In this document: in pieces, positions 1 through 23,869 of the stretch | Numbering within the stretch: the stretch's first letter is position 1 | Layout of the letters: each line of letters opens with the position of its first letter | Source of the DNA: an uncultured Candidatus Saccharibacteria bacterium | Lineage (GTDB): Bacteria > Patescibacteriota > Saccharimonadia > Saccharimonadales > CALMSM01 | Direction: 5' to 3' | Assembly: GCA_937872425.1 (NCBI GenBank) | Contig: CALMSM010000181.1 | Span: 1 to 45,448 of the forward strand | DNA length: 45,448 nt | Made by a program: the position numbers and the translations under genes | Notes under the pieces: model-generated | Databases searched by the model: none | What the model was told of the DNA's origin: nothing | The model's input: the letters and a program-made list of their open reading frames with translations, nothing else

Positions 1-84
1 CGCTCTGGTCAGCCTGCGCTGCGTTTGAAAATTAAGACTCAACAAAGGTAGAAGAGATGTTTACGTGTGCTGCCATTACACTAA

Positions 85-105
85 GGCGGCAAACAGTAAG
101 CCGCC
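85..105 (-). terminator. possible hairpin terminator after the tRNA cluster
   Basis: GGCGGC-ttactgttt-GCCGCC followed by TTAGTGT on the minus strand. The U-tract is poor. Confidence 0.25.
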
Positions 106-169
106 CCCTGGAGTCGAACCAAGACCACGATCTTAGGATGATGTAATCCCTTCAAAGCATTTGAGTCAG

Positions 170-240
170 TGGGCCTTGAGGGAATCGAACCCTCAACTTC
201 GGTTTAAGAGACCGCTGCTTGACCTTCAAGCTAAAAGCCC
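170..240 (-). tRNA. tRNA-Lys (anticodon CTT)
   Basis: Minus-strand cloverleaf: GGGCTTT/TA/GCTT-GAAGGTC-AAGC/A/GCGGT-CTCTTAA-ACCGA/AGTT/GAGGG-TTCGATT-CCCTC/AAGGCCC plus discriminator A. The 7-bp acceptor has one G.U pair, the T-loop is canonical, and the anticodon loop is CT-CTT-AA. No CCA is encoded. Confidence 0.8.
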
Positions 241-345
241 AAAATTGCTGTATTCACTTTTCAACCTGCGAACTGCGCCGTCCAACCAGTGTTGTTCGGC
301 TTGAGGCTTTCTACCACACTTCGTTCTGCTTCGTCAACTACTTTG

Positions 346-416
346 TGCCGATTGACAGAATCGAACTGTCGCGTCCGTCTTACGAGGGCGGCGTACTTCC
401 ACTATACGAAGTCGGC
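346..416 (-). tRNA. tRNA-Thr (anticodon CGT)
   Basis: Minus-strand cloverleaf: GCCGACT/TC/GTAT-AGTGGAA-GTAC/G/CCGCC-CTCGTAA-GACGG/ACGC/GACAG-TTCGATT-CTGTC/AATCGGC plus A. There is one mismatch in the acceptor stem and one in the anticodon stem. The T-arm is canonical. Confidence 0.75.
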
Positions 417-811
417 GACGATCTTCTTGTTTTTGTGCGAAGTCGGTGGCAATTTGCGCAGACGATTTCGCACTTACTGATTTCTTTCAAAACATCTTCC
501 CACGGACGATGCTTCATGTCTGATACGTTATGTTTTTTGTCTCGGAGGCGGTCGAAATCCATGCAAACGGGGTCGTACTTTACGTTGCAATCAGCACAGG
601 GGCGCGACTTGACTTCTTCGATTTTGCGCTTGAAATCTGCTCTTTCTCTAAAGTTCCGTTTTCGTTGCTCTTTACTTCTTTTCTCTCGGTGCTTAGAGTA
701 CCAGGCTTTATGGTACTCCGCATCGCACTCAAGACACCGTCTTCGTTTTTTACCTTTGCGGCTACCGAACTCTGTATCTTGCTTCTCTCGCTCGCACTTG
801 ATGCATTTCAT
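380..811 (-). CDS. HNH homing-type endonuclease (paralog 1)
   Basis: 143 aa. It has an N-terminal CxxC...CxxC ribbon (CIKC, CLEC), a basic linker, and the HNH core CADC...MDFDRLRDKKHNV...ISKCEIVCANCH. The ATG at 811 is preceded by AGTAATCT plus 7 nt. The 3' end overlaps tRNA-Thr by 37 nt. Confidence 0.8.
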   Translation of the reverse strand: MKCIKCEREKQDTEFGSRKGKKRRRCLECDAEYHKAWYSKHREKRSKEQRKRNFRERADFKRKIEEVKSRPCADCNVKYDPVCMDFDRLRDKKHNVSDMKHRPWEDVLKEISKCEIVCANCHRLRTKTRRSSPTSYSGSTPPS

Positions 812-818
812 ACTACCC

Positions 819-826
819 AGATTACT
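819..826 (-). promoter_or_regulatory. AGTAATCT motif (-10-like TAATCT) 7 nt upstream of the HNH ATG
   Basis: The minus strand reads ACAGTAATCT-gggtagt-ATG. No Shine-Dalgarno sequence is present. Confidence 0.45.
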
Positions 827-859
827 GTTCGTAAACCTCTTGTTGTTTACGAGAGCATT

Positions 860-1243
860 CTACTCGTCGTCTCTCCGACTGTCAAGCCTTCTTTGCTGCG
901 TTCTTTCAGCGTGGCAGTTGGCACATACTACTTCGCACTTCGAGATTTCTTCTACCAAAAGAAGAAGGGGTCCGTCGACTTCTTGACCGATTTCAAACTT
1001 TTTGTCTCGCAGGTGGTCAAACTGCATCACGTACGGCGGATACCGAACTCCACAGTCGGCGCACTGCTTATTCTTTTGTTCGTCAATCCACTCTCGACGC
1101 TTAGCTCTCCATCTTTTTTGCTTTTCACGAAAAAGCTTTTTGTCTTTAGCTGCGTATCGTTCTCGATCGTTTTGTTGTCGGCACGGTCGACACCACGAAT
1201 GTCTATCTTGGTGTTCTTGTTCACATTTGGTACATTTTCTCAT
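860..1243 (-). CDS. HNH homing-type endonuclease (paralog 2)
   Basis: The ORF track (860..1255) starts at a TTG; the first ATG is at 1243 (MRKCTKCEQ...). The architecture matches 380..811: CTKC/CRPC ribbon, then CADC...MQFDHLRDKKFEI...ISKCEVVCANCH. Confidence 0.75.
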   Translation of the reverse strand: MRKCTKCEQEHQDRHSWCRPCRQQNDRERYAAKDKKLFREKQKRWRAKRREWIDEQKNKQCADCGVRYPPYVMQFDHLRDKKFEIGQEVDGPLLLLVEEISKCEVVCANCHAERTQQRRLDSRRDDE

Positions 1244-1254
1244 ATCGGGAAACA

Positions 1255-1262
1255 AGATTACT
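1255..1262 (-). promoter_or_regulatory. AGTAATCT motif 11 nt upstream of the HNH ATG at 1243
   Basis: The minus strand reads ACAGTAATCT-tgtttcccgat-ATG. The 11-mer AACAGTAATCT is shared with the 819 copy. Confidence 0.4.
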
Positions 1263-1276
1263 GTTTCCTGATTGTG

Positions 1277-1349
1277 TCAGGGAGGCTGGAGTTGCACCAG
1301 CTACCTCTCGGATCCCGACCGAGTATTCACCTGCATGAAATTCACCCTG
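1277..1349 (-). ncRNA. non-canonical tRNA-like cloverleaf (possible degenerate tRNA or structured RNA)
   Basis: The minus strand folds as CAGGGTG/AAT/TTCA-TGCAGG-TGAA/TA/CTCGG-TCGGGAT-CCGAG/AGGTA/GCTGG-TGCAACT-CCAGC/CTCCCTG plus A (73 nt). 6 of 7 acceptor pairs form. Spacer lengths are irregular, position 33 is C, and the T-loop is TGCAACT rather than TTCRANT. It lies about 30 nt downstream of a consensus promoter at 1381-1409. Confidence 0.25.
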
Positions 1350-1526: not shown

Positions 1527-1534
1527 AGATTACT
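1527..1534 (-). promoter_or_regulatory. AGTAATCT motif overlapping the stop codon of 1530..1886
   Basis: The minus strand reads GAGAAGTAATCT-ccagcct-ATG. The ATG opens only a 14-codon ORF. Confidence 0.35.
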
Positions 1535-1886
1535 TCTCTGTTGGGGGCTTCTTCTTGCTGGGGTGCTCGCAGCAGTCTTTGTCGTGACCTACGGACATTA
1601 GGTCCTTGATGTCGCACTCGCACTGGCCAGGGTGTTCGGGGTAGCCGCCCGGGATTAAGAAGTCGACGTGTACGAAGGACAACGCCACCGGGAGCTTGAT
1701 GTCGCACCAGCATTCTTGCTGGTGCTGGCGTGCGTGGGCCTCAAGTTCTTCCACGGGGTCCGTCTTCATACGGGGGTCGTCACCTAACGGGTAGTAGCCC
1801 GTCCCCTGAACGAGCTTTGTGGGAGCGGCGTTGTAGTTGCCTGCTTCGAGAGCTTTGAGCAGGGCCTGAGTGAGTTCGCTGGTCAT
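1530..1886 (-). CDS. Cys/His-rich small protein carrying a major-capsid-protein-like N-terminal leader
   Basis: 118 aa. The first 28 aa (MTSELTQALLKALEAGNYNAAPTKLVQG) nearly duplicate the MCP N-terminus. The remainder is rich in C/H clusters (ECWCD, HPGQCECD, HDKDCCEHP). It lies 13 nt downstream of the tailspike gene. Confidence 0.7.
   Translation of the reverse strand: MTSELTQALLKALEAGNYNAAPTKLVQGTGYYPLGDDPRMKTDPVEELEAHARQHQQECWCDIKLPVALSFVHVDFLIPGGYPEHPGQCECDIKDLMSVGHDKDCCEHPSKKKPPTEK
1821..1886. repeat. 66-nt direct repeat, copy A (5' end of 1530..1886)
   Basis: 59/66 identical to 6069-6134 at a constant offset of 4248 nt, including a 26-nt perfect run (1828-1853 = 6076-6101). Confidence 0.85.
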
Positions 1887-1898
1887 GGAGCCATCATA

Positions 1899-3551
1899 TC
1901 ACGCCGAGATGGCGCCGAAGGTCTTCCAGGTCCCCGGAGTACCCGAAGCCGTGCAGACCCACCCGATGAAGCCGCTGGCTGAGGGGTCGGTGTTGAAGAC
2001 GATGTCGCCTCGGACCCAGGTCCCTGCCACGGGAATGCTGGCAGCCCTACGGAGCTTCTGGGTGTCAATGGCCAGGCCGGTGACAGCGACCAATTCGTCG
2101 TCGGTCTTGAGTTGGTTGGCGGCCGAGCGATACAAATTCGTGTCAAGGGGGAACGTGTTGGCGCCCCACTCCATCTTCCCGTCAGCGTACCGAATCCAGT
2201 AAGGATAGATGTTCTGGTAAATCTGCGAGAACTCGATGTATTCCCCAGCAGCGCCAGCAAAGGACCGCCTGATTTCGGAAGCACCGGTCGTAGCAAGCCA
2301 CTGGACCTTGGTGTTCATCATCTGGTTCTGACCCACGCAAGTACCTGTCACTCCAGCGTTAATCAGGAGGTCGTGGTTAGTGCCCTTGAGCAGGTTGCCG
2401 TCGACCACGTTGTCGTTGGACAACAAGGCGATGGCATACTGCTGATTCCAGGTCCCCGTTCCTGTATCTACGACCCGGTTGCCGGTGATGAGGTTGCCGC
2501 CCTCACCTGCGACCTGGATGCCAGAGACGTTGGGGTTACCTGCCTTGCAGCAATCGGTGACGGTGTTGTTGGAGACGATGTTGTTCTTGACGACGTGGAG
2601 CCCCACGTCGTGAGTCAAGTAAATACCGCCACCATCACAGCGCCTGATGGTGTTGCCGGAAATCGTACCGTACACAAAAGCATTGTTGCCCAGGATGCCA
2701 ATGCCGTCACATCCGTCGATGTTGTTCCCGAGGACCTGACTACCGGGAGCTTCGAAGTTATTGACGGTGTTGCCGCCGACGGAAATGCCACAAACAAGGG
2801 CGTTCTTGATGGTGTTGTTCTGAATCAGCACGCCCGTACCTGCGCACTCGAAGCCCTCTGAGTTGTAGAGCCTGTTGTTCGTCAAAATCGTCCAATTGCC
2901 GTTGACGTTGATACCGTTGGCACAGTTCTTGGTGACACAATCGAAGATGTGGGTTCTTTCGCTGTTGCCGTCTTCATGGATGCTGAAGCCATGGAGGTTC
3001 TCGAAGTAGCACCCCTTCACGACGAGGTCCTCGCCCGTGATGGCGTAGATGCAAGTCGATTGGGCGTTCTTGTTGAACACGAACGGGTCGTTCGTGCCGA
3101 CGAACGACAGATTTTCGTAGCGGACCTTCGTGTATCCGAACAGTGAAGAAAAGCAATAGTAGTAGGGTTCTGCGGGGTACGCTTCCGAGCCACCACGCGT
3201 GTCGCCCTCCCACTTGATGACCGTTCGTGTTCCGTCGCCTCTGATGACGAAGTTGGAAGGTACGATGACTGCGGCGTCGGCTGAATTGAGGCCAGCGGCG
3301 GTGATTCGGTAGGTCCCAGCGGGGAGGTACAGGGTGTTCCTCCCGTTTGCGACGGCGAGGTCAATGGCTTTCTGGATGGTCTTGGTGTCGTCAGCGAGAC
3401 CGTCGCCTACGCAGCCATTCAAGAGGGCGTTGACGGCGCCGCCAAATTCTCCCGTTCCGAAAGGCGAAGGAACCAGGCCGCCGGGTGAAAAGAATACGCT
3501 CAGTTTGCGCCAAGCATCGTCCCAATACCGCTTCGATTTCAAGTCAGCCAT
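1899..3551 (-). CDS. tailspike / tail fibre with pectate-lyase-type right-handed beta-helix (putative depolymerase)
   Basis: 550 aa. The N-terminal segment GAVNALLNGCVGDGLADDTKTIQKAIDLA...NTLYLPAGTYRI is the pectate-lyase-3-type signature seen in tailspikes. It is followed by a long run of G/N-rich rungs (NNT, GNN, NGN repeats). The C-terminus reads GFIGWVCTASGTPGTWKTFG. GGAG sits 6 nt before the ATG. Confidence 0.8.
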   Translation of the reverse strand: MADLKSKRYWDDAWRKLSVFFSPGGLVPSPFGTGEFGGAVNALLNGCVGDGLADDTKTIQKAIDLAVANGRNTLYLPAGTYRITAAGLNSADAAVIVPSNFVIRGDGTRTVIKWEGDTRGGSEAYPAEPYYYCFSSLFGYTKVRYENLSFVGTNDPFVFNKNAQSTCIYAITGEDLVVKGCYFENLHGFSIHEDGNSERTHIFDCVTKNCANGINVNGNWTILTNNRLYNSEGFECAGTGVLIQNNTIKNALVCGISVGGNTVNNFEAPGSQVLGNNIDGCDGIGILGNNAFVYGTISGNTIRRCDGGGIYLTHDVGLHVVKNNIVSNNTVTDCCKAGNPNVSGIQVAGEGGNLITGNRVVDTGTGTWNQQYAIALLSNDNVVDGNLLKGTNHDLLINAGVTGTCVGQNQMMNTKVQWLATTGASEIRRSFAGAAGEYIEFSQIYQNIYPYWIRYADGKMEWGANTFPLDTNLYRSAANQLKTDDELVAVTGLAIDTQKLRRAASIPVAGTWVRGDIVFNTDPSASGFIGWVCTASGTPGTWKTFGAISA

Positions 3552-3628: not shown

Positions 3629-3985
3629 TTAGAACTTTTCAGTCGTTACAGCGGCAGCCAGAGGGGCTACGACCGAACGGATGACCATGTAGGCGTTACC
3701 GACGACAGCGGCCTGCCCAAGGTTGCCTGCGACAGCGATAGGGCCGATTTGGTCAGCCGAACCTGCAGTGGCGGGAATCATCATGACCTGGTCGCCAACT
3801 CGGAGAATACCGAAGTCGACAGTCTGGCTGACGTTCGTCGCGATGATGAGCGAAACCAGCCTGTGAGTCGCGCCATCGGCGAGAGCGTCGGCCTGGTTGA
3901 GCTTGGTGGCCACATCGTTGCCCTCGGTCTGACCGAGTACAGCCGACATGATGTTCTTTACGGTCTGAGTAGTGAGCTTTGCCAT
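3629..3985 (-). CDS. abundant small virion protein (head decoration or similar), function unknown
   Basis: 118-aa Ala/Val/Gly-rich ORF. It forms a monocistronic cassette: AGTAATCT motif at 4025-4032, GGAG RBS, then a strong rho-independent terminator at 3567-3601. Confidence 0.65.
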   Translation of the reverse strand: MAKLTTQTVKNIMSAVLGQTEGNDVATKLNQADALADGATHRLVSLIIATNVSQTVDFGILRVGDQVMMIPATAGSADQIGPIAVAGNLGQAAVVGNAYMVIRSVVAPLAAAVTTEKF

Positions 3986-4024: not shown

Positions 4025-4032
4025 AGATTACT
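4025..4032 (-). promoter_or_regulatory. AGTAATCT motif upstream of 3629..3985
   Basis: The minus strand reads CAGAAGTAATCT, where TAA is the GIY-YIG stop codon. A 37-nt leader with GGAG follows before the ATG at 3985. Confidence 0.4.
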
Positions 4033-4663
4033 TCTGAGCCAGATATACGAAGGTCAAACCACCGGCCGTTTTCCGCCTTCCCTTCAAGCAATGGACGATG
4101 TTCCCAGGAGGAATCTTCCAACGCTCAGAGGCCTCCTTAATGGTCTTGTAGACACGTCCGTGTTGATCCTGGAAAGGCGGGATTGCTCTTGCGGCTGCGT
4201 GGCTGACGAGTTGTTCTGGAGTCAAGGGAAGGCCCTTTTTGGGACTTGGGCGACCCGTGAGAGTGGCTGAGATTTTTGCTTTGTGAGCTTCCGTTTTTGG
4301 AACGCCTCGAAAGTGAGCGGCACGTCTCTCGATAGTTTCTGGGGAGTCTTTATGTCCTCTACGACCACAGCCACCATCGGTAAGATTAGTAAGCGGCAAA
4401 TTTCGCCGACGCATCTCTGCAATCCAATAGATTTCGGCAGCGTCAAGATACTTAGGTCCGGGCAATTGAACCAGTACAACGAACTTGGGCTTTAGTCCTT
4501 GGTCCAGTAAAGACTGAACCCAGAACTTTTTGTGCCGGGAAGAATCACGACACTTTATCCCTTGTAGATGCTCTTGGAAGCGTGCCGACCCCTTAGAAGA
4601 TTGCCCCACATATCGGGGACAACCGCATTTCGGACAAAGCAAGGCGTAAAGGATGTGTTTCAT
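4028..4663 (-). CDS. GIY-YIG homing endonuclease (I-TevI-like, with NUMOD-type repeats)
   Basis: Start reassigned to the ATG at 4663 (MKHILYALLCPKCGCPRYVGQS...), because the TTG start at 4693 in the track lies inside the MCP terminator hairpin. Motifs: ILYAL...RYVGQS, R..EH, and E in AAEIYWI. The C-terminal repeated G.P.S.E...KIS/G.PL.PE segments resemble NUMOD3. TGTGATAATCT sits 7 nt before the ATG. Confidence 0.8.
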   Translation of the reverse strand: MKHILYALLCPKCGCPRYVGQSSKGSARFQEHLQGIKCRDSSRHKKFWVQSLLDQGLKPKFVVLVQLPGPKYLDAAEIYWIAEMRRRNLPLTNLTDGGCGRRGHKDSPETIERRAAHFRGVPKTEAHKAKISATLTGRPSPKKGLPLTPEQLVSHAAARAIPPFQDQHGRVYKTIKEASERWKIPPGNIVHCLKGRRKTAGGLTFVYLAQK

Positions 4664-4670
4664 ACCCACC

Positions 4671-4681
4671 AGATTATCACA
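4671..4681 (-). promoter_or_regulatory. extended -10 promoter, leaderless layout (GIY-YIG gene)
   Basis: The minus strand reads TGTGATAATCT-ggtgggt-ATG (4663). Confidence 0.5.
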
Positions 4682-4691
4682 CTTTGGTCGC

Positions 4692-4711
4692 AAAAAGGCC
4701 CGTGCGGGCCC
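4692..4711 (-). terminator. rho-independent terminator after the major capsid protein gene
   Basis: The minus strand reads GGCCC-gcac-GGGCC followed by TTTTT, about 40 nt after the MCP stop. Confidence 0.7.
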
Positions 4712-4748: not shown

Positions 4749-6134
4749 TCAAAAACTTCCGACAAGGTTGTCCAGGAGGACGTTCTTGCGAGGCTGGAGG
4801 ACGGCGAGGGTGCAGAAGCGGAAGTGCGCTTCAGGCAGGCTGAGGTCCGTGACGGCCAGCTTCATACGCGAGTACGGAGCAAGCTCCTTCATGGTCATGG
4901 TGTCCTTCTGGAGGAGGAACCCAGTCACGAAGCCCGGCTTCTTGTTGCCGAGGTCGGTGAACACAGTCGTCGCAGCGCCCGAGTTCGCGACACGGCCGAT
5001 GAACTTCGCGGTCGCGGCAGGAGCACCAGCGTTGGTGCGGTACACGTTGAAGTACCGAACAGCGCCAGCGGCAGGGGTGATGGTCACGGAGACCTGGTCA
5101 CCGGCAGCAGCAGCCTGCGAGCCCGAGGCCGACAGAGGCGACTCACCAAGCTCGTTCACCGAAGTGGCGAGATAGATGTAGGTACCAGCGGTCAGGGCCG
5201 AAGTACCACCGGCAGTGCCGAGGGAGATGCTGGGAGCAGCAGGACCGACAGCGCGAGCAGCGGCAGGGCCAGTCTTGCCCGAGAGGAAGCGCGAGGCCTC
5301 AACCGAGACAGTACCACCCGAAACCCACTGACGCTTCAGGTCAGCGGCGGTTGCGTCCTGGGGCGAACCAGCGAGCACGATGCGCTCCTTGCCGAAGGAA
5401 ATCTTGTTGTAGGCCGACAGAACCTTGGGGTCGACGTACAGCGTCTCAGCTTCACCGTGCTGCATGATGCTCTTGACGTGTGCATCTTCGATGGCGTCCT
5501 GGGTCAGGGTACCACCGACGCTCACGACCACGGACTCGTTCGAGCCGTATTCAGCGAACATCAGGTCGGTCGTGTTGCGCTCAGTGTCCGACATGCGGAT
5601 CTGGGCATCGAGGCCGAGGAGGTTGGGCAGCGAGGGGTACGCAGCCATGTTGCCGTCGAACACACCAGCGTTCGAGAAGTCGCTCTTACCACGGAACAAG
5701 TCGAACTCGATGTCAGCCGAGAGCTTCTTGGCAGCGTCAGCAGCAGCGCGGTCTTCAGCCTTCTGGCCGTCGATCGTCTGAATCATGTTCGCAACTACGG
5801 TCACACGACGAACGTGCGAGTAAAAGGCCATGGGGACGACGATACGTACGAACTGGCTGTCTTCCTCGACGCCGACTGCGCCTTCCTGGGTGGCAGTACC
5901 ACCGAAGATGCCGTACGAAAGCTGACGGTCGAACTGTGCGAGGGTCGACTTGCACGATTCGGTCTTCATGCCCTTCTGGAGCTTGATGGACTTCTCTTCA
6001 AACGTGACGACCTGCATTACTGACGCAAGGTCTTCAATCTGGAGAGCGCCACCCTGGACGAGAGACGAGGGCGCTGCGTTGTAGTTGCCTGCTTCGAGAG
6101 CCTTCAGCAGGGCCTGAGTGACTTCACTGGACAT
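4749..6134 (-). CDS. major capsid protein
   Basis: 461 aa, placed immediately after the scaffold gene and followed by a terminator. The composition and position are typical of an HK97-fold MCP. The N-terminal leader MSSEVTQALLKALEAGNYNAAPSSLVQGGALQIEDL is shared with two other proteins in the window. Confidence 0.8.
   Translation of the reverse strand: MSSEVTQALLKALEAGNYNAAPSSLVQGGALQIEDLASVMQVVTFEEKSIKLQKGMKTESCKSTLAQFDRQLSYGIFGGTATQEGAVGVEEDSQFVRIVVPMAFYSHVRRVTVVANMIQTIDGQKAEDRAAADAAKKLSADIEFDLFRGKSDFSNAGVFDGNMAAYPSLPNLLGLDAQIRMSDTERNTTDLMFAEYGSNESVVVSVGGTLTQDAIEDAHVKSIMQHGEAETLYVDPKVLSAYNKISFGKERIVLAGSPQDATAADLKRQWVSGGTVSVEASRFLSGKTGPAAARAVGPAAPSISLGTAGGTSALTAGTYIYLATSVNELGESPLSASGSQAAAAGDQVSVTITPAAGAVRYFNVYRTNAGAPAATAKFIGRVANSGAATTVFTDLGNKKPGFVTGFLLQKDTMTMKELAPYSRMKLAVTDLSLPEAHFRFCTLAVLQPRKNVLLDNLVGSF
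6069..6134. repeat. 66-nt direct repeat, copy B (5' end of the MCP gene)
   Basis: See copy A. A shorter related stretch, GCGGCGTTGTAGTTaCCTGC, occurs at 11974-11993 inside the protease polyprotein gene. Confidence 0.85.
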
Positions 6135-9104: not shown

Positions 9105-12100
9105 TCAATCAAAACGGAAACGGACTCCATTGCGGCGCTGAGCAGCAACTTCGTTCATGGCCTGGCGTGTGCCCTTGTATCGAGAGATATCGGGGGTGAG
9201 CTTGAATTGTGTCTGAAGAGCCTTCAGGCGACTGACCGCTTCTTTGACTGCCTTGTGTGGCATCTCGTGACGGTGCAGTTGAGCTTCCAGTTCGGTGGCA
9301 TCGAGCTTCGACAGCCAATCGAGGGCGGCTGGATGAACCGGTTCTGCGTAGGTCCCCGAGCTACCGAATTCGTTCGGCCAGCGGTCGGCCTCGGCTGCGA
9401 GATGGGGGTTCTTCACCTTGTTGTAGGCGTTCATGTAGTCCGCTACGAAGGGGTCGTACCCCCAGGCTCCGGTCTCACCCAACACGATGTTGTGGTCAAT
9501 CAGATTCAGGGCTCGGTTCTTTCGGTCAACAAGATAGTTCTGGCCGTGACGGTCGTTGTTGCCCATGACACGGTTCATGAACTGAAGCTTGTCGAGTTCT
9601 CCCGAGTCAGCGTGTTCGCGAAGGATGTTTTGGTGGTCGGGGTCCTTGGGGTCGTACTCTTTGCCTGCACGGCGCTCGATGATAGCATGTTCAACGCCGG
9701 TCTGTGGGTGGCGGACTACCGCGACAGCGGGTGTGTACTGGCCCAGACCGAAGAAATCTCGGGCGAGGTTGGCATACATACCTTCTTGTCGTACTTCCGG
9801 AATCAGCAAGTGGTGCTGACTGCCCCTTCCGGGTTCGGACTTGACGTACACCCTTTTGCCACTGGGGCCCTTCGACCAGAACGAATATGCCTTACGGCTA
9901 CCCTTTTTGGCCTTTACGGGCTCAGTCGCAAAATCAAAACCCTCTGCAAGTGCTTTTGCGTCGGGGTGGTAATTGAATTCACCGACGCCGTGGTCCTTGA
10001 CCGACACACGAGTGCCCGTCTCTTTGTGTACGGGCGTATGCTTGATTTCAAGGGGGTTCGCGGAGCGGGGGAACGTCACGATGTCTTCTGGTTTGAAGTC
10101 GTGGAAGTGTTCCTTGCGAACGGCGACGATGTCCTTCGGTCCCATGTCCAGGACGTGGTATTCTGCAGGTGCCTCGCCCCGAGTGTGGTGGTGCAGTGCG
10201 TAACCGGGCTGAACCTGCTTGCCGTTCCATTCAACCGCCTCAGGAGTGAGGTCGACCTGCACGGTCTTCGTCTTCGTGGCGGCCTTTCTCAGCGCAACCA
10301 GCGTGTCGACCTGGAGTTCCTCGAAGCGGCGCAAAACATACTCGCCCTTCTTGGCTTCGTTGGCCGTGAGCTTGGGTACCAAGTACCGGTAGTACAAGCC
10401 CAGAGCATGGACGGGGCCGTACTGTTCCAGCCAGCGGTGGTGCTGCATTGCCGTTCTGAAGTGGAGTTCGGGGTCGTACTCTGCGCCTGGCGTTTCAGCC
10501 TTCTTCAGCAGTGGGTTGACAGCGTCCCAGAAGGGCGCGTGGTCGGTCTCAGCGTTGGACGAACCCGAGTGAGGTGTACCAATGCGGCGCTCGTGGCCGG
10601 GGATGCTAATCCAGTGCCACCAAAATGCCGGGAACACAGACTGCTCTTCGCGCCCCTTGAAGTAGGGCCCGATTGCGGGGTCATTCAAGACCGCCTTGAC
10701 GGCGTCGTGGTTCTGGTAATAGTGCTTGTCGATTCCTTCGAGCAAATCGTGCGAGCTTGAGCTTGACAGCAGCGAATTCTTGAGGTGTTCTTGGGTCTCG
10801 GAGTCGACCGAGGTGTTCGAACCTGGGGCGATGGGCTGCGAGCCGAAATAATGTCGGATGAAGTGGGTGTCGGGTACGACCATGTTGCCTGCACCCATCA
10901 TGCCAAGCAAATACCGGGACAGCTTGGGTGCAATACCACGCACGTCGGTCAGGCGCCGGGCAACCTTGCTTGCGTCGCCCTTGGCCGCTCGAATGGTCTG
11001 GACGATGTCGTTGTGGTGGTTGTTGATGTATTCACCAAAATATTTGGCGAACTGGTTGGGTTTGTTGTAGCCCTGCATCGCACCGGTCTGGGTCGTGAGT
11101 TCCTTCTCAATCGACGTAAATGCACCCAGCATCGGCTTCCCCGCAGGGTCCATGACGTCGTTTCCGCTTGCATCCGTGACCTTCTTGGCGGGGTCAAAAT
11201 ACTCTTTGGTGTAGTGACTGTTGGAGTGCTTGGGGAGGCCCGTGCGGTTTCTGGCCATCCAGCCCTTGACGGTTTCGTCCCACTTAGCCGGGTCGGCGTG
11301 TGTCAGGCCCTGGGAGTGGAGTTGGTCCATGAAGTGCCCGTACATGAACTCTTGCATCGGAACGGGAATGCCGGGGCTCATCAGAGCGAAAGCGACGGCG
11401 TGAGATACCACGCCAGGGTGAATGTCGCCCTTCGAGAACCGGTCATTGACGACGAACCAGTTCCGCATCGCACGCTGGTGGTGCGTGCGACGGTCTGCGA
11501 GTTCATCCTGGAAGTGCTGAGCGATTTCCGGGGCGCCCTTGCCCGTGTGTGCCATCAGGTGGGGGTGGGGGTTCGAAGGAGTCGAGGCCTGGAAGACGCC
11601 TTGACGTGTCGTCAGAACACCCTTGTCGAAGCCGAGTTTGCTCTTCTCGGGAGGCGCATTGACTGGACGTCCCTGGACGGTGAACGTCGAGGGCTTAGGT
11701 TCGGGCGGCTTGACCAGCTTGGCGGGCTTTTTGCCAGCCTTCGCCATCTCGCGCAGAACTTCCTCGGCCTTCTTGACCTTGAAGATGTGGCTGTCAACGA
11801 TTTCCTGGAAGTGGTCCAGGAATTCATCGCTGGCCTCTGGCAACCTGGCCTTGAGGAACTTCTTGAAGGGGGTGACCCTGTTCCAGTCGCGGAACGCAGC
11901 AAGGGCGAGGGCGCGGTGCTTCCGCGACTGGTCTTCGACTTGCAGGGCTGCACCGCCGGTCAGAGTACCTGGTGCGGCGTTGTAGTTACCTGCAGCCATA
12001 GCCTTGGAGATTTCAGTACCGTAAATGGCCTCAGAGCCCCCGAGACGAACGAATCGTGGGTCGACGTGCTCGCCCTTCTTGGTCGAGGTCGTAGGGACCA

Positions 12101-12659
12101 TGGCGAGCAAGTCGGCCGCGACGGGGTTCTTGTCGTAGCCCTCAGGTGCGTTGGGGTCTGCGAGCAGGCCCGATACGGCAGTCTTGTTGCAGGGGCGCAG
12201 GGTCAGAGCGACACGACGCGCGATGGTGGTCTTGAGACGGTTGGTCTTCGAGTCCTTTTCGAGCGTCGAGCCTTCAATCGAGAACCCGACGATGATGGGC
12301 TCGTTGTTCGCATGGGAGTCACGGATGATGGCAGCGAGAGCCTTGGCGCCTTCGTGGCCAGCCCCGTCATAGAGACGGATGATGCCGTAAAGAAAGGGGA
12401 TTTTGACCTTGCCCCAGAACAGCTTCTCGCGGTCGTTCGAACAGTCGGACGAACTGTAAATCTTCTTGGCAAAAACCACCTTGCCGACGATCTCTTGACC
12501 TTGATTGTTCTCGTTGTCGTGGCCTTGATGTTCATAGTTGCATACCCCTTTCCCATCATCAAAGTCCGAGATATCGATACCTTTTACGTCAAGAATTTCT
12601 CCAGAAGAATCAATTGCTTCCGAAGCAAAGACGCCATCCATCAGCAGACCAGTACTCAC
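9105..12659 (-). CDS. prohead protease fused to a large internal-virion polyprotein with C-terminal PI3/4-kinase/HipA-like kinase-fold module
   Basis: 1184 aa with a GTG start. Residues 1 to about 175 resemble HK97-family prohead proteases (GVFASEAIDSSGEILD...NYEH...VGFSIEG). Residues 216-243 (EISKAMAAGNYNAAPGTLTGGAALQVED) repeat the MCP leader. The mid region contains a helix-hairpin-helix-like stretch, VRGIAPKLSRYLLGMMGAGNMVVPDTHFIRHYFG. The C-terminal stretch LQFMNRVMGNNDRHGQNYLV...LNLIDHNIVLG matches the G-x-x-DRH-x-x-N / IDH(F)G catalytic pattern of PI3/4-kinase-like and HipA-like kinases. Confidence 0.7.
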   Translation of the reverse strand: MSTGLLMDGVFASEAIDSSGEILDVKGIDISDFDDGKGVCNYEHQGHDNENNQGQEIVGKVVFAKKIYSSSDCSNDREKLFWGKVKIPFLYGIIRLYDGAGHEGAKALAAIIRDSHANNEPIIVGFSIEGSTLEKDSKTNRLKTTIARRVALTLRPCNKTAVSGLLADPNAPEGYDKNPVAADLLAMVPTTSTKKGEHVDPRFVRLGGSEAIYGTEISKAMAAGNYNAAPGTLTGGAALQVEDQSRKHRALALAAFRDWNRVTPFKKFLKARLPEASDEFLDHFQEIVDSHIFKVKKAEEVLREMAKAGKKPAKLVKPPEPKPSTFTVQGRPVNAPPEKSKLGFDKGVLTTRQGVFQASTPSNPHPHLMAHTGKGAPEIAQHFQDELADRRTHHQRAMRNWFVVNDRFSKGDIHPGVVSHAVAFALMSPGIPVPMQEFMYGHFMDQLHSQGLTHADPAKWDETVKGWMARNRTGLPKHSNSHYTKEYFDPAKKVTDASGNDVMDPAGKPMLGAFTSIEKELTTQTGAMQGYNKPNQFAKYFGEYINNHHNDIVQTIRAAKGDASKVARRLTDVRGIAPKLSRYLLGMMGAGNMVVPDTHFIRHYFGSQPIAPGSNTSVDSETQEHLKNSLLSSSSSHDLLEGIDKHYYQNHDAVKAVLNDPAIGPYFKGREEQSVFPAFWWHWISIPGHERRIGTPHSGSSNAETDHAPFWDAVNPLLKKAETPGAEYDPELHFRTAMQHHRWLEQYGPVHALGLYYRYLVPKLTANEAKKGEYVLRRFEELQVDTLVALRKAATKTKTVQVDLTPEAVEWNGKQVQPGYALHHHTRGEAPAEYHVLDMGPKDIVAVRKEHFHDFKPEDIVTFPRSANPLEIKHTPVHKETGTRVSVKDHGVGEFNYHPDAKALAEGFDFATEPVKAKKGSRKAYSFWSKGPSGKRVYVKSEPGRGSQHHLLIPEVRQEGMYANLARDFFGLGQYTPAVAVVRHPQTGVEHAIIERRAGKEYDPKDPDHQNILREHADSGELDKLQFMNRVMGNNDRHGQNYLVDRKNRALNLIDHNIVLGETGAWGYDPFVADYMNAYNKVKNPHLAAEADRWPNEFGSSGTYAEPVHPAALDWLSKLDATELEAQLHRHEMPHKAVKEAVSRLKALQTQFKLTPDISRYKGTRQAMNEVAAQRRNGVRFRFD

Positions 12660-16150: not shown

Positions 16151-18211
16151 TTACTCCTTGTGCTTGTCGGGCATGTAGTGGTCAATTACAGCAGCGATTT
16201 CGTCCGTTGCCTTTTGGGCGTCGGCTTCGAGCCCGTGGAGGACGTGCTGGATGACCTGGCGCTGATGATGCAAGAGCATTTTCTTGCTAGAAGGAAGCTG
16301 CTGCTCGGACTTCGACATCATCCCTGCGAACTGGTCGACGGTGTTCGTGAGGTCGCCCTGCTGGTCTTTCTGTTCCTGTTGCTGCTGACCCTGCTGTTGC
16401 TGGGCCTGCTGCTGCTGCATTTGCTGCTGCTGCTGCATTTGTTGCTGTTCCATCTGCATCTGTTGCCACTGGAACCAGTTTGGGTTGTTGACGAACTGGA
16501 ACCTGGGGTCCTTGGAGGCGCCCTCGATGCCGAAGAAGAACTCCAGAATCTCGCCGACCAAGAAGTACTTGTCGACGACGGCCTGCCACTGGGGGTTCAG
16601 CAAGAACCGACCAGCCCAACGGCGACCGACGGGGTGCTTTTCGACCTTCTCCAAGACTTCATCCATGGTCATGTGAACGGCCATGTCCTGCTGGAGTCGG
16701 GTCGATTCCTTTTCGGCGGTGTCGACGTCGAGGCCAACGAACTTGAGGGAGCAAGAGTCGGCGAGGTCGGGTGCGAGCAGAGGCAGAACGCGAGCGTTGA
16801 GGAAGTTCTGGAACTGGGCAATCAGAGGCCTGATGCCGACGTCACGATGAGCTTCGAGCTTGTACTCGTTGTTGCTTTCGGACATGGCCTGGTTGTTCGT
16901 ACCACGGCTCAGGTGAGCGTAGCCGGGGAGTTCTTCAGGCGACATCTGGTAGGCCGACAGAATCACACGAGCGTTGGTGTCGCTGAGGTACTGGAACTCC
17001 ATGTCTCGTGACGAGTTGTCGATGGGGTACCAGTTGATTTCATCGTCAGTACCGACACCGAAAATTGGCATACGCCAAGCGTTGCCGACCGAGTTGATGG
17101 ACGCGTTGAATTGCTGACGAACGAACGACACTACGTTCTCGTCAACGTCATCCGACTTGATGACAATCATGCCGCGAGCAGCACGACCAGACTGGAAATA
17201 CAGCTTGTTGTGCGTCCCGATGTTGATGTGCGTGGTGACGGCCGTGATGACCGTGTCGAGAGGGGTGATGGGGTACCCATCAAGCTCGACGTCGGTGCTC
17301 GGGTAGAAATTGTGGACGAAGCATTCGTCGCTCGTGAAGGCCTGGATGGGCTGTCCTTCGACGACCTGGACCCACGAATACTCGTCGGCCACGTACTTCT
17401 CGGGGACGAGCTTCTTGTTCTTGAGGCGTGCGAGGTGGTGAAGGGCCTGCTTACGGACGGCGTCACCGGCTTCCTTGTACGGGGCTGCGCGGAAAATCGT
17501 ACCCGCGTCGATTGGGCGGAACGAGTGGAACTTGCGACCCGATGGGGTGTCAACCCAAATCATTTCCGTGGCTGCCCGTCCGAAGACGACGGCATTGCGG
17601 GCCGACATGAAAAGGTACTGTCCGAAGGTGAGGGCCTCTTGGTCATCCCACCCACGGGTTTCACCGCACGTCATCAGAAGCTGTTCGACCTCAGCGATTC
17701 TCTTCTGAAGGGCTTCCTTCTGTTCGCTCTTCAGGTTCTCGGTGAAGCGAGGCTTGGGTTCAAGACGTACGCCGGTCGAGAACCGGTCTGGCTGGGGGCG
17801 TCCAAAGGCTGCGAGTTGGTTGCTGCGGGTGTTGACGATTGCGGCGACCAGGTCGTCTTGAATCGAAATGCGCTTCAGGACTTCGTCCGGCAGCAGGCGC
17901 AGCTTTCGCTTCCACAGAGAAGCGTAGACGTTCTGCGAGTTCGGCTGCGTGTCGAAGGCGAGGCGCTCGATAGAGTCACCCGGGCCGTTGAGTACGTTCA
18001 AGACCGACTTGATGAGCGGGTTCGAGTCCGCCATCGCTTGCTCATGAGACTTGAGGTCCGACTTCGACAGCGGCTTCGAGGTCTCAGCGGCGGCGAAATA
18101 CGGGTCAGCGAAGGCCATGCTGACCTTGTTCTTGCGAGGTGCTTCTTGGGTAGGGACGTCGGAGAACTGTTCCAGGATACCCCGCTGGAAAGCCGTGAGT
18201 TTCTTGGCCAT
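16151..18211 (-). CDS. portal protein
   Basis: 686 aa, located between the terminase-proximal gene and the MuF-like gene. Its size and position fit a portal. The C-terminal region carries a poly-Gln tract (QQQMQQQQQMQQQQAQQQQGQQQQEQ). Confidence 0.75.
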   Translation of the reverse strand: MAKKLTAFQRGILEQFSDVPTQEAPRKNKVSMAFADPYFAAAETSKPLSKSDLKSHEQAMADSNPLIKSVLNVLNGPGDSIERLAFDTQPNSQNVYASLWKRKLRLLPDEVLKRISIQDDLVAAIVNTRSNQLAAFGRPQPDRFSTGVRLEPKPRFTENLKSEQKEALQKRIAEVEQLLMTCGETRGWDDQEALTFGQYLFMSARNAVVFGRAATEMIWVDTPSGRKFHSFRPIDAGTIFRAAPYKEAGDAVRKQALHHLARLKNKKLVPEKYVADEYSWVQVVEGQPIQAFTSDECFVHNFYPSTDVELDGYPITPLDTVITAVTTHINIGTHNKLYFQSGRAARGMIVIKSDDVDENVVSFVRQQFNASINSVGNAWRMPIFGVGTDDEINWYPIDNSSRDMEFQYLSDTNARVILSAYQMSPEELPGYAHLSRGTNNQAMSESNNEYKLEAHRDVGIRPLIAQFQNFLNARVLPLLAPDLADSCSLKFVGLDVDTAEKESTRLQQDMAVHMTMDEVLEKVEKHPVGRRWAGRFLLNPQWQAVVDKYFLVGEILEFFFGIEGASKDPRFQFVNNPNWFQWQQMQMEQQQMQQQQQMQQQQAQQQQGQQQQEQKDQQGDLTNTVDQFAGMMSKSEQQLPSSKKMLLHHQRQVIQHVLHGLEADAQKATDEIAAVIDHYMPDKHKE
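16358..16468. repeat. CTG/TTG (CAG/CAA on the coding strand) low-complexity tract encoding poly-Gln
   Basis: The plus strand reads ctgctg...ctgctgttgctgggcctgctgctgctgcatttgctgctgctgctgcatttgttgctg, inside the portal gene. Confidence 0.8.
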
Positions 18212-18215
18212 GAAT

Positions 18216-19202
18216 TTATCCTACCATCAGAACTGTGACGTCAGCGGCGACCGCAGAACGGTTGAAAATCACCAGCGACCAGGTCGGACCGAGACGGGCG
18301 TAGAACCCAGGCTTGGTCGGGTCGCTGGAATCGAAGGGGGTGGTCCTCTGGAAGTCCCCGGTATCGCCATTGACACGGGGGACGACTTCTTGGGTAGATT
18401 CGATGTACAAAAGCCTCTTGGCTTCCGTGAAAAAGCTCATACCGGCGGCACCAGGAACGATGGCGGTCTGCGTAGCCAGAGGCGTGGTGCTGACGAACTC
18501 GACAAAAAGGTCGGTGACAGCGGTGACCTTGAAAATCTGTCGAGCGGAGGCAGAGAACCCTGCAGTGATGTCGAGGGAGTCCCCAATCTGGACGCCAGCG
18601 GCGCTGTAAATCCGGAGTTGGTCGTTGCTGACCGGTGACACGACTTCGCCGATACCTTCAAAGCCCTGGCCCGTGGGTCGCACGAGGGTGATGATTTGTG
18701 AGCTTGTCACGCCGAGAACGGTCCAGTACCCCGCGTTCAGGACTGAAATGACGTTGGCGGCGTCGCCGGTCGTCGTGTGGGGGATGAACACATGGTCGCC
18801 CACGGCTACGGAGCCAAAAATGGCCGAGGCTGCGTTCACGGTCATCGTCGCGTTCGCATTGACGGTGAAGGTGAGAGCTACCCCGCTGGCGGCGATAGCT
18901 CGCCCGGTACGGAGACCTGGGTTGGCCCCACCAGTGTGGGTGATTCGGTACGTGCTGGCATTTTCGACGACCAGCAGGCCGAGTCCGAATGCGGTAGTCC
19001 CGTCAATCGTGGTCGGTCTGACGCCCGTGAAGATGGTCAACGCCTGACCAGGTTCAATCCGATGTGCCTCGATTTTGGGGTCGGTGACGGCAATACCGCT
19101 GACGTCACGAGTCCAGTCCAAAAACCGCAAACGGGGGTTGCTGCTGGCCTGAGCATCGCCGAAAGCGACGATTTTTGCTGTAAAATTGAGGGTAGCTTGC
19201 AT
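18216..19202 (-). CDS. virion-module protein, function unknown
   Basis: Start reassigned to the ATG at 19202 (MQATLNFTAK...), with GGAG 5 nt upstream and 19 nt after the terminase stop. 328 aa, beta-rich and Thr/Val/Gly-rich. Confidence 0.6.
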   Translation of the reverse strand: MQATLNFTAKIVAFGDAQASSNPRLRFLDWTRDVSGIAVTDPKIEAHRIEPGQALTIFTGVRPTTIDGTTAFGLGLLVVENASTYRITHTGGANPGLRTGRAIAASGVALTFTVNANATMTVNAASAIFGSVAVGDHVFIPHTTTGDAANVISVLNAGYWTVLGVTSSQIITLVRPTGQGFEGIGEVVSPVSNDQLRIYSAAGVQIGDSLDITAGFSASARQIFKVTAVTDLFVEFVSTTPLATQTAIVPGAAGMSFFTEAKRLLYIESTQEVVPRVNGDTGDFQRTTPFDSSDPTKPGFYARLGPTWSLVIFNRSAVAADVTVLMVG

Positions 19203-19221
19203 GGAATCTCCGGGGCGTAGA

Positions 19222-21147
19222 TTATCCGTCCCAAACGAAGCGGTTTTTCTTGACTGTGGTGCCAGAAACTGTGGTGCCGCTAGAGCTACCGGACATCGAG
19301 CCGGTCTCACGTCGAATGAGGTCGGTCATCCAGTTCTGTTGACTATTTGGATGCTTCGACTCGGGTGCTGCGTGAGCTTCGACTGTCAAGGCTGTTCGGG
19401 TGTCTTCTTTGAGGGCGCCCTTGGAGCCTAGCACATTCATGATGACGTAACGCAGCGCGTCGGCTTCGTCGTCGTCGGTGCCGTCAGGTTCTTCGGTAGG
19501 TAGCCCGTCGTTGGTGACCACGAGCTTGTACTTCTTGAGGTTTTTCCAGAGCTTGTCGCTGACGCCGGAATCCTCAGACAAGAAGAACAACCTGGTCTTT
19601 CCTCGGCCCGACATCAGCAGCGAGCGAATGATTTCGATACCGGCCTTGACACTGAAGGGCTTCTTTTCCCAGTCAATCATCCTGAAGCCGCGCTTCGAGA
19701 AAGTCTTGATGGACCCCGGGTAGGCGGGGTCTGCGTAGACGCGGGGGTTGTTGAACATGAGCTTGATGTACTCGGAGTTCGCGGTCTGGTCGTCGAGTTC
19801 CAGACCTGGCTGGGAGTAACAGTCAAGGACAAAGACATACTGGCCGAACGTCGCAATCGTGACGATGGCGAAGGGGTGGGTGAACCCGAAGTCCATGCCG
19901 GTATAGAACCGGGCCCCTTTGCTCATCAGCAACTGAATGAGCGAGGTCTTGGTATAGTTCTTGACTTCGTCTTCGGCCAGGACCATGGCTGCCATCTGGT
20001 TGGCGGTCTTTTTGTGGAGGTCTTCTGACAGGCGCGGGAACACAAGACCGCTGGCGTCAGGCTTGCGGCACAGATACTCGGTCGTGATGAAGTCCGGGCT
20101 CGGAGCTTGCTGGAACTTTTCGATTGCGAACGAAATGGGCTTGAGCATCGGGCTCTTGGAAGTCTGGTTGGTAGCCAGACGTCCCTTGCATGCCGCAAAG
20201 ATGCGACAGTTTTTACAGCCCGCGAAGCCCTCTTTGGTGTACCAGCCCTTTTGTTCACCGGGGCTAAGGCCGTCGAACTGGTCCTTGGTGATGTGGCGGA
20301 CCTGGTCGTCGTTGATGTAGTACTCTTGCTTGGGCTCGTCGGGCTTGTGACGAGCGGGTTCGCAAGCGTGCGTTACGTCAATCAGGTTCCAGTGCTTGAT
20401 TTTGAGCTTGGTGCGGTCCGACTCGTCGATTTCGTGCTGTACGAGCCCCGTACGAGACTTACGAGTCGACGTGAGGAGTGTGAGCGGCAACATGCCGTCA
20501 CGGGGGTCGGGGATGTTCTGGGCCTGGTGGTAAGCCGCGATGTTTTGCTTGGGTACGACGTCGACTTCGTCAATGACGAAAAACTCGACGTGGTCGCTGT
20601 TCGCGCCAGCCATTGTACAAACGACGATTTTGAGGTAATTGTCCCTGCGGTGATATTCTTGCTGCTGGGCAAGTGTCAGGGCAGAGAACTCCGTATCGTT
20701 GAGGATTTCACCGGTCTTTTTGTGGGCGAATCGAACGAGCTTGATTTCTCGGGAGTTGTCTCCGACGACGAAGTCCTTGAGGACGGGCCGACGGAAGAAG
20801 TCCTTGATGTAGCTGGCCGACTTCTTGGACTGGGCCTCGATGGCGGCCATGTGACCGATGTTGCGGGTCGTATGCAACAAAGCCATCGTTTCGAGTACGG
20901 CTGCGGACAGCGTCTTGAAACCACCTCGATTGGCGTAGGTCATGACCTTCGAGCTACCGGCCAGGTCGTTCCTCAGAATGCGGTCGTAGTACTCCCAAGC
21001 GGCGTCAAGGGGTGACGAGTTCGATTCGTCCTCTACGACGATGCAGTCGGGGAAGTCGATTTTCAGGAAGTGGATAATCCACGACTTGAAGTGAGCCCTG
21101 GTCGTACATGGGGTAAAGAGAAGCTTGCGATTTTCCTGGAGATTCAT
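19222..21147 (-). CDS. terL: terminase large subunit
   Basis: 641 aa. Walker-A-like YANRGGFKT, Walker-B FFVIDEVD, a C-terminal RNaseH-like nuclease region with acidic residues (YADPAYPG, DDDEADALRY), and an ATGA overlap with the upstream small ORF. Confidence 0.85.
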   Translation of the reverse strand: MNLQENRKLLFTPCTTRAHFKSWIIHFLKIDFPDCIVVEDESNSSPLDAAWEYYDRILRNDLAGSSKVMTYANRGGFKTLSAAVLETMALLHTTRNIGHMAAIEAQSKKSASYIKDFFRRPVLKDFVVGDNSREIKLVRFAHKKTGEILNDTEFSALTLAQQQEYHRRDNYLKIVVCTMAGANSDHVEFFVIDEVDVVPKQNIAAYHQAQNIPDPRDGMLPLTLLTSTRKSRTGLVQHEIDESDRTKLKIKHWNLIDVTHACEPARHKPDEPKQEYYINDDQVRHITKDQFDGLSPGEQKGWYTKEGFAGCKNCRIFAACKGRLATNQTSKSPMLKPISFAIEKFQQAPSPDFITTEYLCRKPDASGLVFPRLSEDLHKKTANQMAAMVLAEDEVKNYTKTSLIQLLMSKGARFYTGMDFGFTHPFAIVTIATFGQYVFVLDCYSQPGLELDDQTANSEYIKLMFNNPRVYADPAYPGSIKTFSKRGFRMIDWEKKPFSVKAGIEIIRSLLMSGRGKTRLFFLSEDSGVSDKLWKNLKKYKLVVTNDGLPTEEPDGTDDDEADALRYVIMNVLGSKGALKEDTRTALTVEAHAAPESKHPNSQQNWMTDLIRRETGSMSGSSSGTTVSGTTVKKNRFVWDG

Positions 21148-23113: not shown

Positions 23114-23250
23114 TATCCCACCACATCGCATCTTGTGAGGTCTGGTCCGTACATCTCACCGTGAAAACCCACGGCGGTCACTACGATGACTTCTTTCCCG
23201 ACGACGAACTCCGACTGTACCAGCCGCTTGGCTTTTTTCTTACTCGTCAT
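23113..23250 (-). CDS. hypothetical small protein
   Basis: 45-aa ORF (MTSKKKAKRLVQSEF...) that fills the gap between flanking genes, overlapping both at start and stop. Support is weak. Confidence 0.3.
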   Translation of the reverse strand: MTSKKKAKRLVQSEFVVGKEVIVVTAVGFHGEMYGPDLTRCDVVG

Positions 23251-23859: not shown

Positions 23860-23869
23860 GGTTTTCCCT

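Follow-up and report, generated by a model that had tools for sequence, protein, structure and literature searches.

We analysed a 45,448-nt stretch of DNA (contig CALMSM010000181.1 of assembly GCA_937872425.1, an uncultured Candidatus Saccharibacteria bacterium; hereafter the window) and focused on a small gene in it that encodes a protein of 118 amino acids (aa). The window is part of a large Mx1-like myophage, with genes for a portal, a DnaE-type polymerase, GroEL, ribonucleotide reductase and SbcCD. We observed that the small protein begins with a 28-residue leader resembling the start of the major capsid protein (MCP) of the same phage, and that a third copy of this segment lies within an 1184-aa prohead protease fusion. 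The features of the locus are listed in Table 1.

Table 1. Positions in the window of the small gene, its parts and the other features discussed. The arrow marks the predicted cut; ORF, open reading frame; HMM, hidden Markov model.
Feature	Position	Strand	Basis
Small gene, 118 aa: MCP-junction leader, variable linker, C-terminal Cys/His knuckle	1530..1886	minus	ORF, ten metagenomic relatives
Leader, residues 1-28 (MTSELTQALLKALEAGNYNAAPTKLVQG)	1803..1886	minus	Match to MCP residues 1-28
Predicted scissile bond Lys11↓Ala12 (Lys11 codon)	1854..1856	minus	Phage 812 homology
Half-knuckle ECWCDIK, residues 58-64, partial duplicate of the knuckle start	1695..1715	minus	18-nt direct repeat
Insert LPVALSFVHVDFLIPGGYPEHPGQ, residues 65-88, one subtype only	1623..1694	minus	Common to P0003 and P0005
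Knuckle C89-x-C91-x8-G100-H101-x3-C105 (CECDIKDLMSVGHDKDC)	1572..1622	minus	Invariant columns in alignments A2 and A4
C106, H108 and Lys-rich tail after the knuckle	1530..1571 (tail)	minus	
MCP, 461 aa, SPO1 / phage 812 / Mx1 type	4749..6134	minus	phrog_752, PDB matches
MCP copy of the junction, MSSEVTQALLK↓ALEAGNYNAAPSSLVQG	6051..6134	minus	BLASTP, leader HMM
1184-aa protein, S78-like prohead protease and ~960-aa C-terminal part	9105..12659	minus	phrog_1028, alignment A3
Protease domain, residues 1 to ~219	12003..12659	minus	Alignment with annotated proteases
Protease-fusion copy of the junction, EISK219↓AMAAGNYNAAPGTLTGGAALQVED	11931..12014	minus	Residues 216-243 of the 1184-aa ORF
tRNA-Lys	169-240		
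tRNA-Thr	345-416		
Cys-rich HNH-like ORF	380..811	minus	
Cys-rich HNH-like ORF	860..1255	minus	
Fibre/spike gene	1899..3551	minus	Pectate-lyase-like beta-helix
Another 118-aa gene	3629..3985		
Homing-endonuclease-like gene	4028..4693	minus	I-HmuI NUMOD-like domain
Nucleotide cyclase, 383 aa	7944..9095	minus	GGDEF / Cas10-palm-like
GroEL-type chaperonin	27833..29605	plus	Cpn60_TCP1, E 4e-38

The small gene is conserved among uncultured phages

The small gene starts with ATG, only four codons after an upstream in-frame stop and 12 nt beyond the fibre gene's stop codon. It closes the series of late-block protein genes, with tRNA genes coming next; no promoter or terminator matches were found near it. 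A search of 5.8 billion proteins returned ten metagenomic relatives of the small protein, and given this conservation the gene is genuine. Its synteny is kept in L001-L009 and L014, where it is again the last late-block protein gene directly ahead of the tRNA array. A distant member, P0011, is found in L010-L013 just upstream of the gene that occupies the position of the Mx1 terminase large subunit, in a stretch that is syntenic with 25248..16151 of the window. The family member thus sits in the late or packaging block in both settings, beside the fibre gene in the window and near the terminase-position gene in L010. All ten relatives keep the leader, with A12, L13, A15, A20 and P22 invariant, and their linkers differ in length and sequence. 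In P0005 and P0010, 70-95 additional residues precede the leader, so that it is not always N-terminal.

Among cultured phages, a megablast search with 12.7 kb gave no match, and the small gene was absent from all those searched. In two wastewater RNA-seq runs we found only fragments of the MCP and no sequence covering the small gene; these were contigs and cannot show absence.

The capsid protein and the protease fusion

We identified the MCP by its match to phrog_752 (E 1e-39), its 57% identity to the MCP of Myxococcus phage Mx1, and PDB matches to SPO1 Gp6.1 (9vel, E 1.5e-17) and the phage 812 MCP (5lii, 9row). Felix O1 was also considered as a relative and was rejected, as its MCP belongs to a different family. 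The 1184-aa protein matches the head maturation proteases of phrog_1028 (E 1.7e-6). Its ~220 N-terminal residues align with annotated proteases of Mx1, Bacillus phage Nachito and Pseudomonas phage Dolphis, with H44 and S127 invariant in this alignment (A3), and one of the aligned homologues matches Pfam Peptidase_S78 (E 3.9e-7). The head module is syntenic with that of Mx1, where the MCP gene follows those for a 1239-aa 'putative prohead protease' and a nucleotide cyclase and two further genes of unknown function.

The C-terminal ~960 aa of the 1184-aa protein end in a catalytic loop of PI3/PI4-kinase-like type at residues 1022-1064 (Pfam E 4.5e-4; NNDRHGQNYLV...IDHN), and this part may be a capsid-delivered kinase-like protein. 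Mx1, with 1239 aa, and IMG/VR relatives, with ORFs of 1131-1342 aa, show the same giant protease-fusion architecture. The nucleotide cyclase lies within the head module between protease and MCP and is kept in Mx1 and in L001-L004. The GroEL-type chaperonin could bear on MCP folding.

Three copies of the leader in the window

By BLASTP, 24 of the first 28 residues of the small protein are identical to the MCP (E 5e-14), with no similarity past residue 28. A leader HMM run on the window found exactly three copies, the small-protein leader scoring E 2.7e-15; the third, EISKAMAAGNYNAAPGTLTGGAALQVED, corresponds to residues 216-243 of the 1184-aa ORF. The small protein and the MCP show no differences over TQALLKALEAGNYNAAP, and in terms of the cut predicted below the small protein equals the MCP from P5 to P11' (TQALLK↓ALEAGNYNAAP). 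A preliminary description of the locus had reported 23 matching positions, one fewer than we count. We agree with it that the two proteins are unrelated after residue 28 and that the same core recurs at the protease junction of the 1184-aa protein. The leader similarity is conserved in related genomes, as all ten relatives keep it.

At the DNA level, the leaders of the small gene and the MCP gene are 83% identical over 84 nt, beginning at the ATG and ending at codon 28. The flanks show 28% identity over 60 nt upstream and 35% over 60 nt downstream. The pair carries 8.5 synonymous and 5.5 non-synonymous differences, with proportions of 0.40 (pS) and 0.088 (pN) and a pN/pS of ~0.22; the leader peptide has been held by purifying selection while its DNA drifted. 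We ruled out a fresh duplication on the basis of the high synonymous divergence and the unrelated flanks. Borrowing of expression signals or of a ribosome-binding region was likewise ruled out, since the similarity begins at the ATG and the upstream sequence is unrelated. An AlphaFold2 (AF2) model places a helix at leader residues 3-15, with a predicted local distance difference test score (pLDDT) of ~69.

The leader resembles a maturation junction shared across the capsid lineage

The MCP junction is repeated directly after the S78-type protease domain in every genome checked, namely the window, Mx1, Dolphis, Nachito, a Kayvirus and 12 IMG/VR genomes (Table 2). The MCP and protease copies evolve in concert: their identity is 50-59% within a genome, compared to a mean of 31% between genomes. 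A profile of the protease tails in A3 matched residues 20-69 of the SPO1 MCP (E 1.7e-5), and the motif occurred 1428 times in 731 Herelleviridae records, or about two times per genome. We found a conserved Lys just ahead of (A/S/T)(L/M/F)x(A/T)G in 25/25 MCP and 12/12 protease copies, a count that includes IMG/VR genomes of 160-180 kb. The consensus K↓(A/S)(L/F)x(A/T)G..(Y)...P......G(G)A(L/F)..E is common to the window lineage, Herelleviridae and Mx1.

Table 2. Paired copies of the junction in the MCP and the protease of five phages.
Phage	MCP copy	Protease copy
Window	LLKALEAGNYNAAPSSLVQGGALQIED	SKAMAAGNYNAAPGTLTGGAALQVED
Mx1	RKAMEAGNFNAKPSTLVQGSAMQIED	AKAMEAGNFNAAPSTLQGGSALQSES
Dolphis	IKALEASNYQTDVSQLEGGGALGIQSLDT	AKALEASYATDAAAKTGGAALGMRSLDT
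Nachito	SKALEAGYATTPETQSNGGAFRVESLEN	SKSLEAGYATSPLEQSGGGAHRTESLES
Kayvirus Clo6	VVKSFQTGYGITPDTQIDAGALRRE	VIKSFLTGHGTSPDTQEDAGALRKE

The MCP/protease junction is ancient and common to Herelleviridae, and the first 28 residues of the small protein are a paralogous copy of the MCP propeptide/N-arm junction. The leader is the MCP maturation junction itself and not a free-standing tag. Only uncultured Mx1-like phages showed a third copy of the junction on a knuckle protein; they came from wastewater, freshwater, groundwater and activated sludge.

A predicted cut after a conserved lysine

In the phage 812 MCP structures (PDB 9row/9rox/9roz), the 439-aa chain begins at S25 of the 463-aa precursor, ...DVVK↓SFQTGYGITPDT, and the Lys before S25 (K24↓S25) aligns with K11 of the window proteins. 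Transferred to the window by homology, this boundary predicts cleavage at ALLK11↓A12LEAGNYNAAP in both the MCP and the small protein; the corresponding bond of the protease fusion would be ISK219↓A220MAAGNYNAAP. Such a cut would remove 11 residues only and leave AGNYNAAP..LVQG as the new N-terminus. In phage K virions the peptide SFQTGYGITPDTQIDAGALR was detected (PMC5258805), which indicates that the motif core is retained in mature capsids. In the literature searched, we found no passage that says explicitly where the mature MCP of Herelleviridae begins. Where 24 to 165 extra residues precede the motif of the MCP, as in Kayvirus, Nachito, Dolphis and P0036, the same cut would take off a longer propeptide. 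Cut sites of the T4-like L/I-x-E or phiKZ-like A/S/G-x-E type were rejected, as the Glu is not conserved across copies.

A protein that carries the exact P5-P11' sequence of the MCP site might also act on assembly without being packaged. It could be a pseudo-substrate or competitor at the prohead protease or at the MCP N-arm docking site, timing maturation and staying out of the virion. This would fit the loss of the GGALQIEDL half, which leads into the capsid fold, and the replacement of the P1 Lys in some relatives, which could be uncleavable binders; the weak Shine-Dalgarno sequence and the distance of 12 nt from the fibre gene point to expression that is low and coupled. We nevertheless consider such a regulator improbable, since we found no precedent for it, Mx1 and Herelleviridae assemble without the small protein, and the same leader occurs on large and varied N-terminal domains (P0012, 466 aa; P0051, 385 aa; P0040, 310 aa), more like cargo tagging.

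The C-terminal part is a Cys/His knuckle with a mosaic history

Residues 29-118 of the small protein hold six Cys and six His, among them the clusters ECWCD, QCECD and HDKDCCEH. Such clusters had been described beforehand as suggesting metal binding; they are indeed present, but only one Cys-Cys-His-Cys set is conserved and the others are lineage-specific. Across the relatives only C89, C91, G100, H101 and C105 are invariant. The four candidate metal ligands among them (C89, C91, H101, C105) are invariant in 11 and in 47 sequences, and the knuckle presumably binds zinc.

The knuckle core was modelled by AF2 from 47 sequences with a pLDDT of 78-84, and a Foldseek search of the PDB with this model gave no match. 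Pfam and PHROGs returned no family for the small protein and ten knuckle proteins (Pfam E 0.01 to 0.1), and tblastn of both knuckle types against cultured phages gave chance matches only (E 9). The module is similar to the retroviral-type CCHC knuckle (C-x2-C-x4-H-x4-C) in that a short Cys-Cys-His-Cys unit stands beside a basic tail. It differs in its spacing, C-x-C-x9-H-x3-C, which does not match zf-CCHC (PF00098), and in that the small protein is acidic overall except for the tail, as counted from the translation. The knuckle is a Cys/His module without earlier description that is widespread among environmental phages.

We also observed a CDIK-coding direct repeat of 18 nt (1605-1622 and 1695-1712, 89% identity). 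Residues 1-64 of the small protein are P0002-like (94% identity) and residues 65-118 are P0003/P0005-like. The window protein is a mosaic of two subtypes joined at the repeated 18-mer. Segments of the form KLPxxxxFxxxDF, resembling the insert, also occur in P0017 and P0051.

This visible mosaicism raises the question of whether the leader is a relic of recombination, either illegitimate or driven by a homing endonuclease, in which the 5' end of the MCP gene took part, with no leader-dependent function in the ORF. Besides the internal repeat at the CDIK codons and the two joined subtypes, homing endonuclease genes flank the region and neighbouring genes are gained or lost between relatives. A relic is very improbable, however, in view of a pN/pS of ~0.22 at 40% synonymous divergence, leader residues that are invariant where the linkers differ, and the presence of the leader on more than 20 distinct protein clusters.

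Leader and knuckle are found on many other proteins

When 1.84 billion representative proteins were scanned exhaustively by HMMER, the family profile matched 71 of them at E <=1e-3, and these fall into three classes. Proteins of the first class carry both leader and knuckle and are often small; in some of them both stand behind large unrelated N-terminal domains (P0012, P0051 and P0040, with the lengths given above, as well as P0021 and P0019). The second class has the knuckle alone, mostly at the extreme C-terminus of many unrelated proteins of 60-240 aa. The third combines the leader with other Cys-rich ends or with none (P0025, P0038, P0047, P0073, P0075), and some of its members are mere truncated MCP ORFs (P0055, P0058, P0071). 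The knuckle comes in two flavours, CxCDIKDLMSTGHxxxCPEKK and CECGxxKx(3-10)HSxWCP. The leader motif is internal in P0005, P0010, P0012, P0019, P0021, P0040 and P0051, which makes it a junction and not strictly an N-terminal leader. Counted at 50% identity, it is found on more than 20 clusters of distinct proteins. Leader and knuckle are both portable modules, and the knuckle is carried by dozens of accessory proteins.

A further case is IMGVR_UViG_3300019458_000002 (171.7 kb; L031, L035), which encodes a 337-aa Cys/His-rich protein (L035 9596..10609, plus) 64 kb from its MCP gene. In its interior, 50 residues mimic the N-terminus of the MCP encoded by the same genome, and the protein ends differently, in CxxC...CHxxC. 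The residues before the Lys match the MCP of the same genome, IQQLVK in IMGVR_UViG_3300019458_000002 and TQALLK in the window. Further MCP-like peptides on family members correspond to SFYSHVRRV (103-111), DLFRGKADFS (142-156), the C-terminal F.F..L..P.KN.LL.NL (433-457) and residues 1-50; several of these matches are weak (E 0.005-0.04). In the knuckle-only proteins P0026, P0032 and P0054, the segment directly before the knuckle is similar to the C-terminus of the MCP (LPEAHFRF..L.PRKNVLLDNL), with E values of 4e-4 to 9e-3 for P0026 and P0054.

Mimics of several different MCP segments (1-50, 103-111, 142-156, 433-457) on different members might instead be directed at a target outside the capsid, such as the phage GroEL-type chaperonin or a host capsid sensor, with the small protein acting in the cytoplasm. 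Many family members are found among early-type small genes, and the phage encodes its own chaperonin. This explanation is wholly inferential, and several of the secondary matches it draws on are short, with the weak E values given above. The window gene also stands at the end of the structural block, and comparative support exists only for the link between junction and protease. We therefore give it a small chance of being correct.

Neighbouring genes

The fibre/spike gene beside the small gene is missing in L001-L003 (contig joint 1903->3570, run X9), and in L006 and L014 a 478-aa gene replaces it. This neighbour is therefore a receptor-binding cassette that can be exchanged. The tRNA array that follows the small gene is short in the window (1..1300), with one tRNA-Lys and one tRNA-Thr compared to 12-15 tRNAs in relatives, and it is broken by the two Cys-rich HNH-like ORFs. 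The homing-endonuclease-like gene lies between the MCP gene and the other 118-aa gene. It is absent from the same position in L004 and L014 and is therefore a mobile insertion.

Comparison with known capsid-targeting and processing systems

In T4, the prohead protease trims the capsid targeting sequence (CTS) of internal proteins; the CTS is no copy of the MCP N-terminus, and the cut follows L/I-x-E. The T4 CTS (IPI-III, Alt) and the P1 DarB signal are similar to the leader in that a short portable N-terminal peptide sends unrelated proteins into the procapsid. In contrast, the tag of the window corresponds to the MCP maturation junction, is also present in the protease, is predicted to be mostly retained, and can be internal. 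We found neither T4-type CTS homology nor an L/I-x-E site in the small protein, which belongs to no Pfam or PHROG family and whose leader matches the MCP. For P1 DarB, a 30-residue signal suffices to load a reporter (PMC9024508).

The junction of Herelleviridae (phage K/812, SPO1) and Mx1 is homologous to that of the window and has the same two locations, the maturation site of the MCP and the stretch immediately behind the S78-type protease domain. These phages have two copies per genome; in the window lineage, accessory proteins bear a third copy and in some cases further ones. In herpesvirus- and lambda-type protease-scaffold fusions, self-cleavage frees the protease from a capsid-binding tail. 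The protease fusion of the window is comparable by functional analogy, with a protease, a predicted self-cleavage junction and a C-terminal part; its junction, however, mimics the MCP N-terminus, and its 960-aa C-terminal part is kinase-like and no canonical scaffold. The capsid and scaffold proteins of 80alpha have a common N-terminal peptide, which a host protease cuts off at the same position in both, a ribosomal-protein-L27-like site. Unlike in 80alpha, the motif of the window is unrelated to that site and is carried by the phage's own protease. The small protein is not a member of the T4 CTS/DarB or protease-scaffold groups, to which it has no homology. As a candidate substrate of the S78-type protease, it carries the junction sequence, in which the conserved Lys is followed by (A/S)(L/M)xAG.(Y/F)...P, and shares its genome with a cognate protease bearing the same junction, but it does not have the GGALQ.ED/SL half.

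A capsid-junction leader as a possible route into the head

Taken together, we judge it about as likely as not that the small protein, with its MCP-junction leader, is processed by the protease and becomes a minor component of the head, either internal or accessory. The prohead protease would recognise the junction and cut after the conserved Lys, trimming the MCP at K11↓A12 and releasing the protease from its C-terminal partner at K219↓A220. Because the small protein equals the MCP from P5 to P11', it would be trimmed at K11↓A12 too, provided that it is in the same compartment as the MCP. The retained AGNYNAAP..LVQG would then mimic the MCP N-arm and probably dock in the procapsid at the site of the MCP N-arm or of the protease tail, on a neighbouring MCP or on scaffold. 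Docking by this N-arm-like segment could itself be the route to the protease compartment, and the knuckle would be a separate portable module, by presumption one that binds zinc. Protease processing and capsid targeting of the small protein are plausible. Our comparisons establish the homology of the copies, their conservation and concerted evolution, and the spread of the modules; the cut site, docking, packaging and metal binding are inferred.

Several observations weigh against this interpretation. Mx1, the nearest cultured phage, lacks the small gene, and AF2 models the small protein as a whole poorly (pLDDT 49). Beyond LVQG the small protein departs from the junction, so that the GGALQIEDL half common to MCP and protease is missing; P0011 is its only relative that keeps FQIEDL. 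The cut site is taken from deposited PDB chain boundaries of a distant relative with 26% motif identity, and the P1 Lys is missing in 7/44 accessory copies (replaced by A, E, Q, R or T), so cleavage cannot be obligatory. Some leader and knuckle genes are found among early-type small genes and not among head genes (P0012 in L019; L035). Finally, the leader of the L001-L004 small proteins has drifted (LLKALAAGGYHAHPTKEGFY) with the MCP leader unchanged, and strict co-variation therefore fails.

The preliminary description had proposed that the leader is a portable targeting and cleavage tag, and had named co-variation among the three genes as a check. A portable module held by purifying selection and tied to prohead-protease processing fits our findings, although as a junction and not strictly as an N-terminal leader. 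Removal of all 28 residues is unlikely, because the phage 812 homology puts the cut after Lys11 and AGNYNAAP...LVQG remains. Co-variation holds in part: the MCP and protease copies co-evolve and TQALLK and IQQLVK match their own MCPs, but the leader of L001-L004 departs from it.

As a broader and rather doubtful possibility, Mx1-like uncultured phages may possess an accessory toolkit in which an MCP-segment mimic is combined with a dedicated zinc knuckle. Such a modular system of capsid-peptide mimicry would serve either to anchor different cargo domains in the procapsid lattice or to catch capsid-recognising factors. If so, the junction could be used in Herelleviridae, phage K among them, as a natural tag for loading and processing.

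If the junction is both protease recognition site and docking peptide, this would explain how the protease is recruited and then released in a large capsid lineage, which includes therapeutic staphylococcal and Listeria phages. It would also provide a short natural tag for loading proteins into the capsids of that lineage. The idea that accessory proteins reach capsids via copied pieces of the capsid protein becomes testable, and the small gene offers a concrete tag-and-cut model for this widespread capsid lineage together with a new small module.

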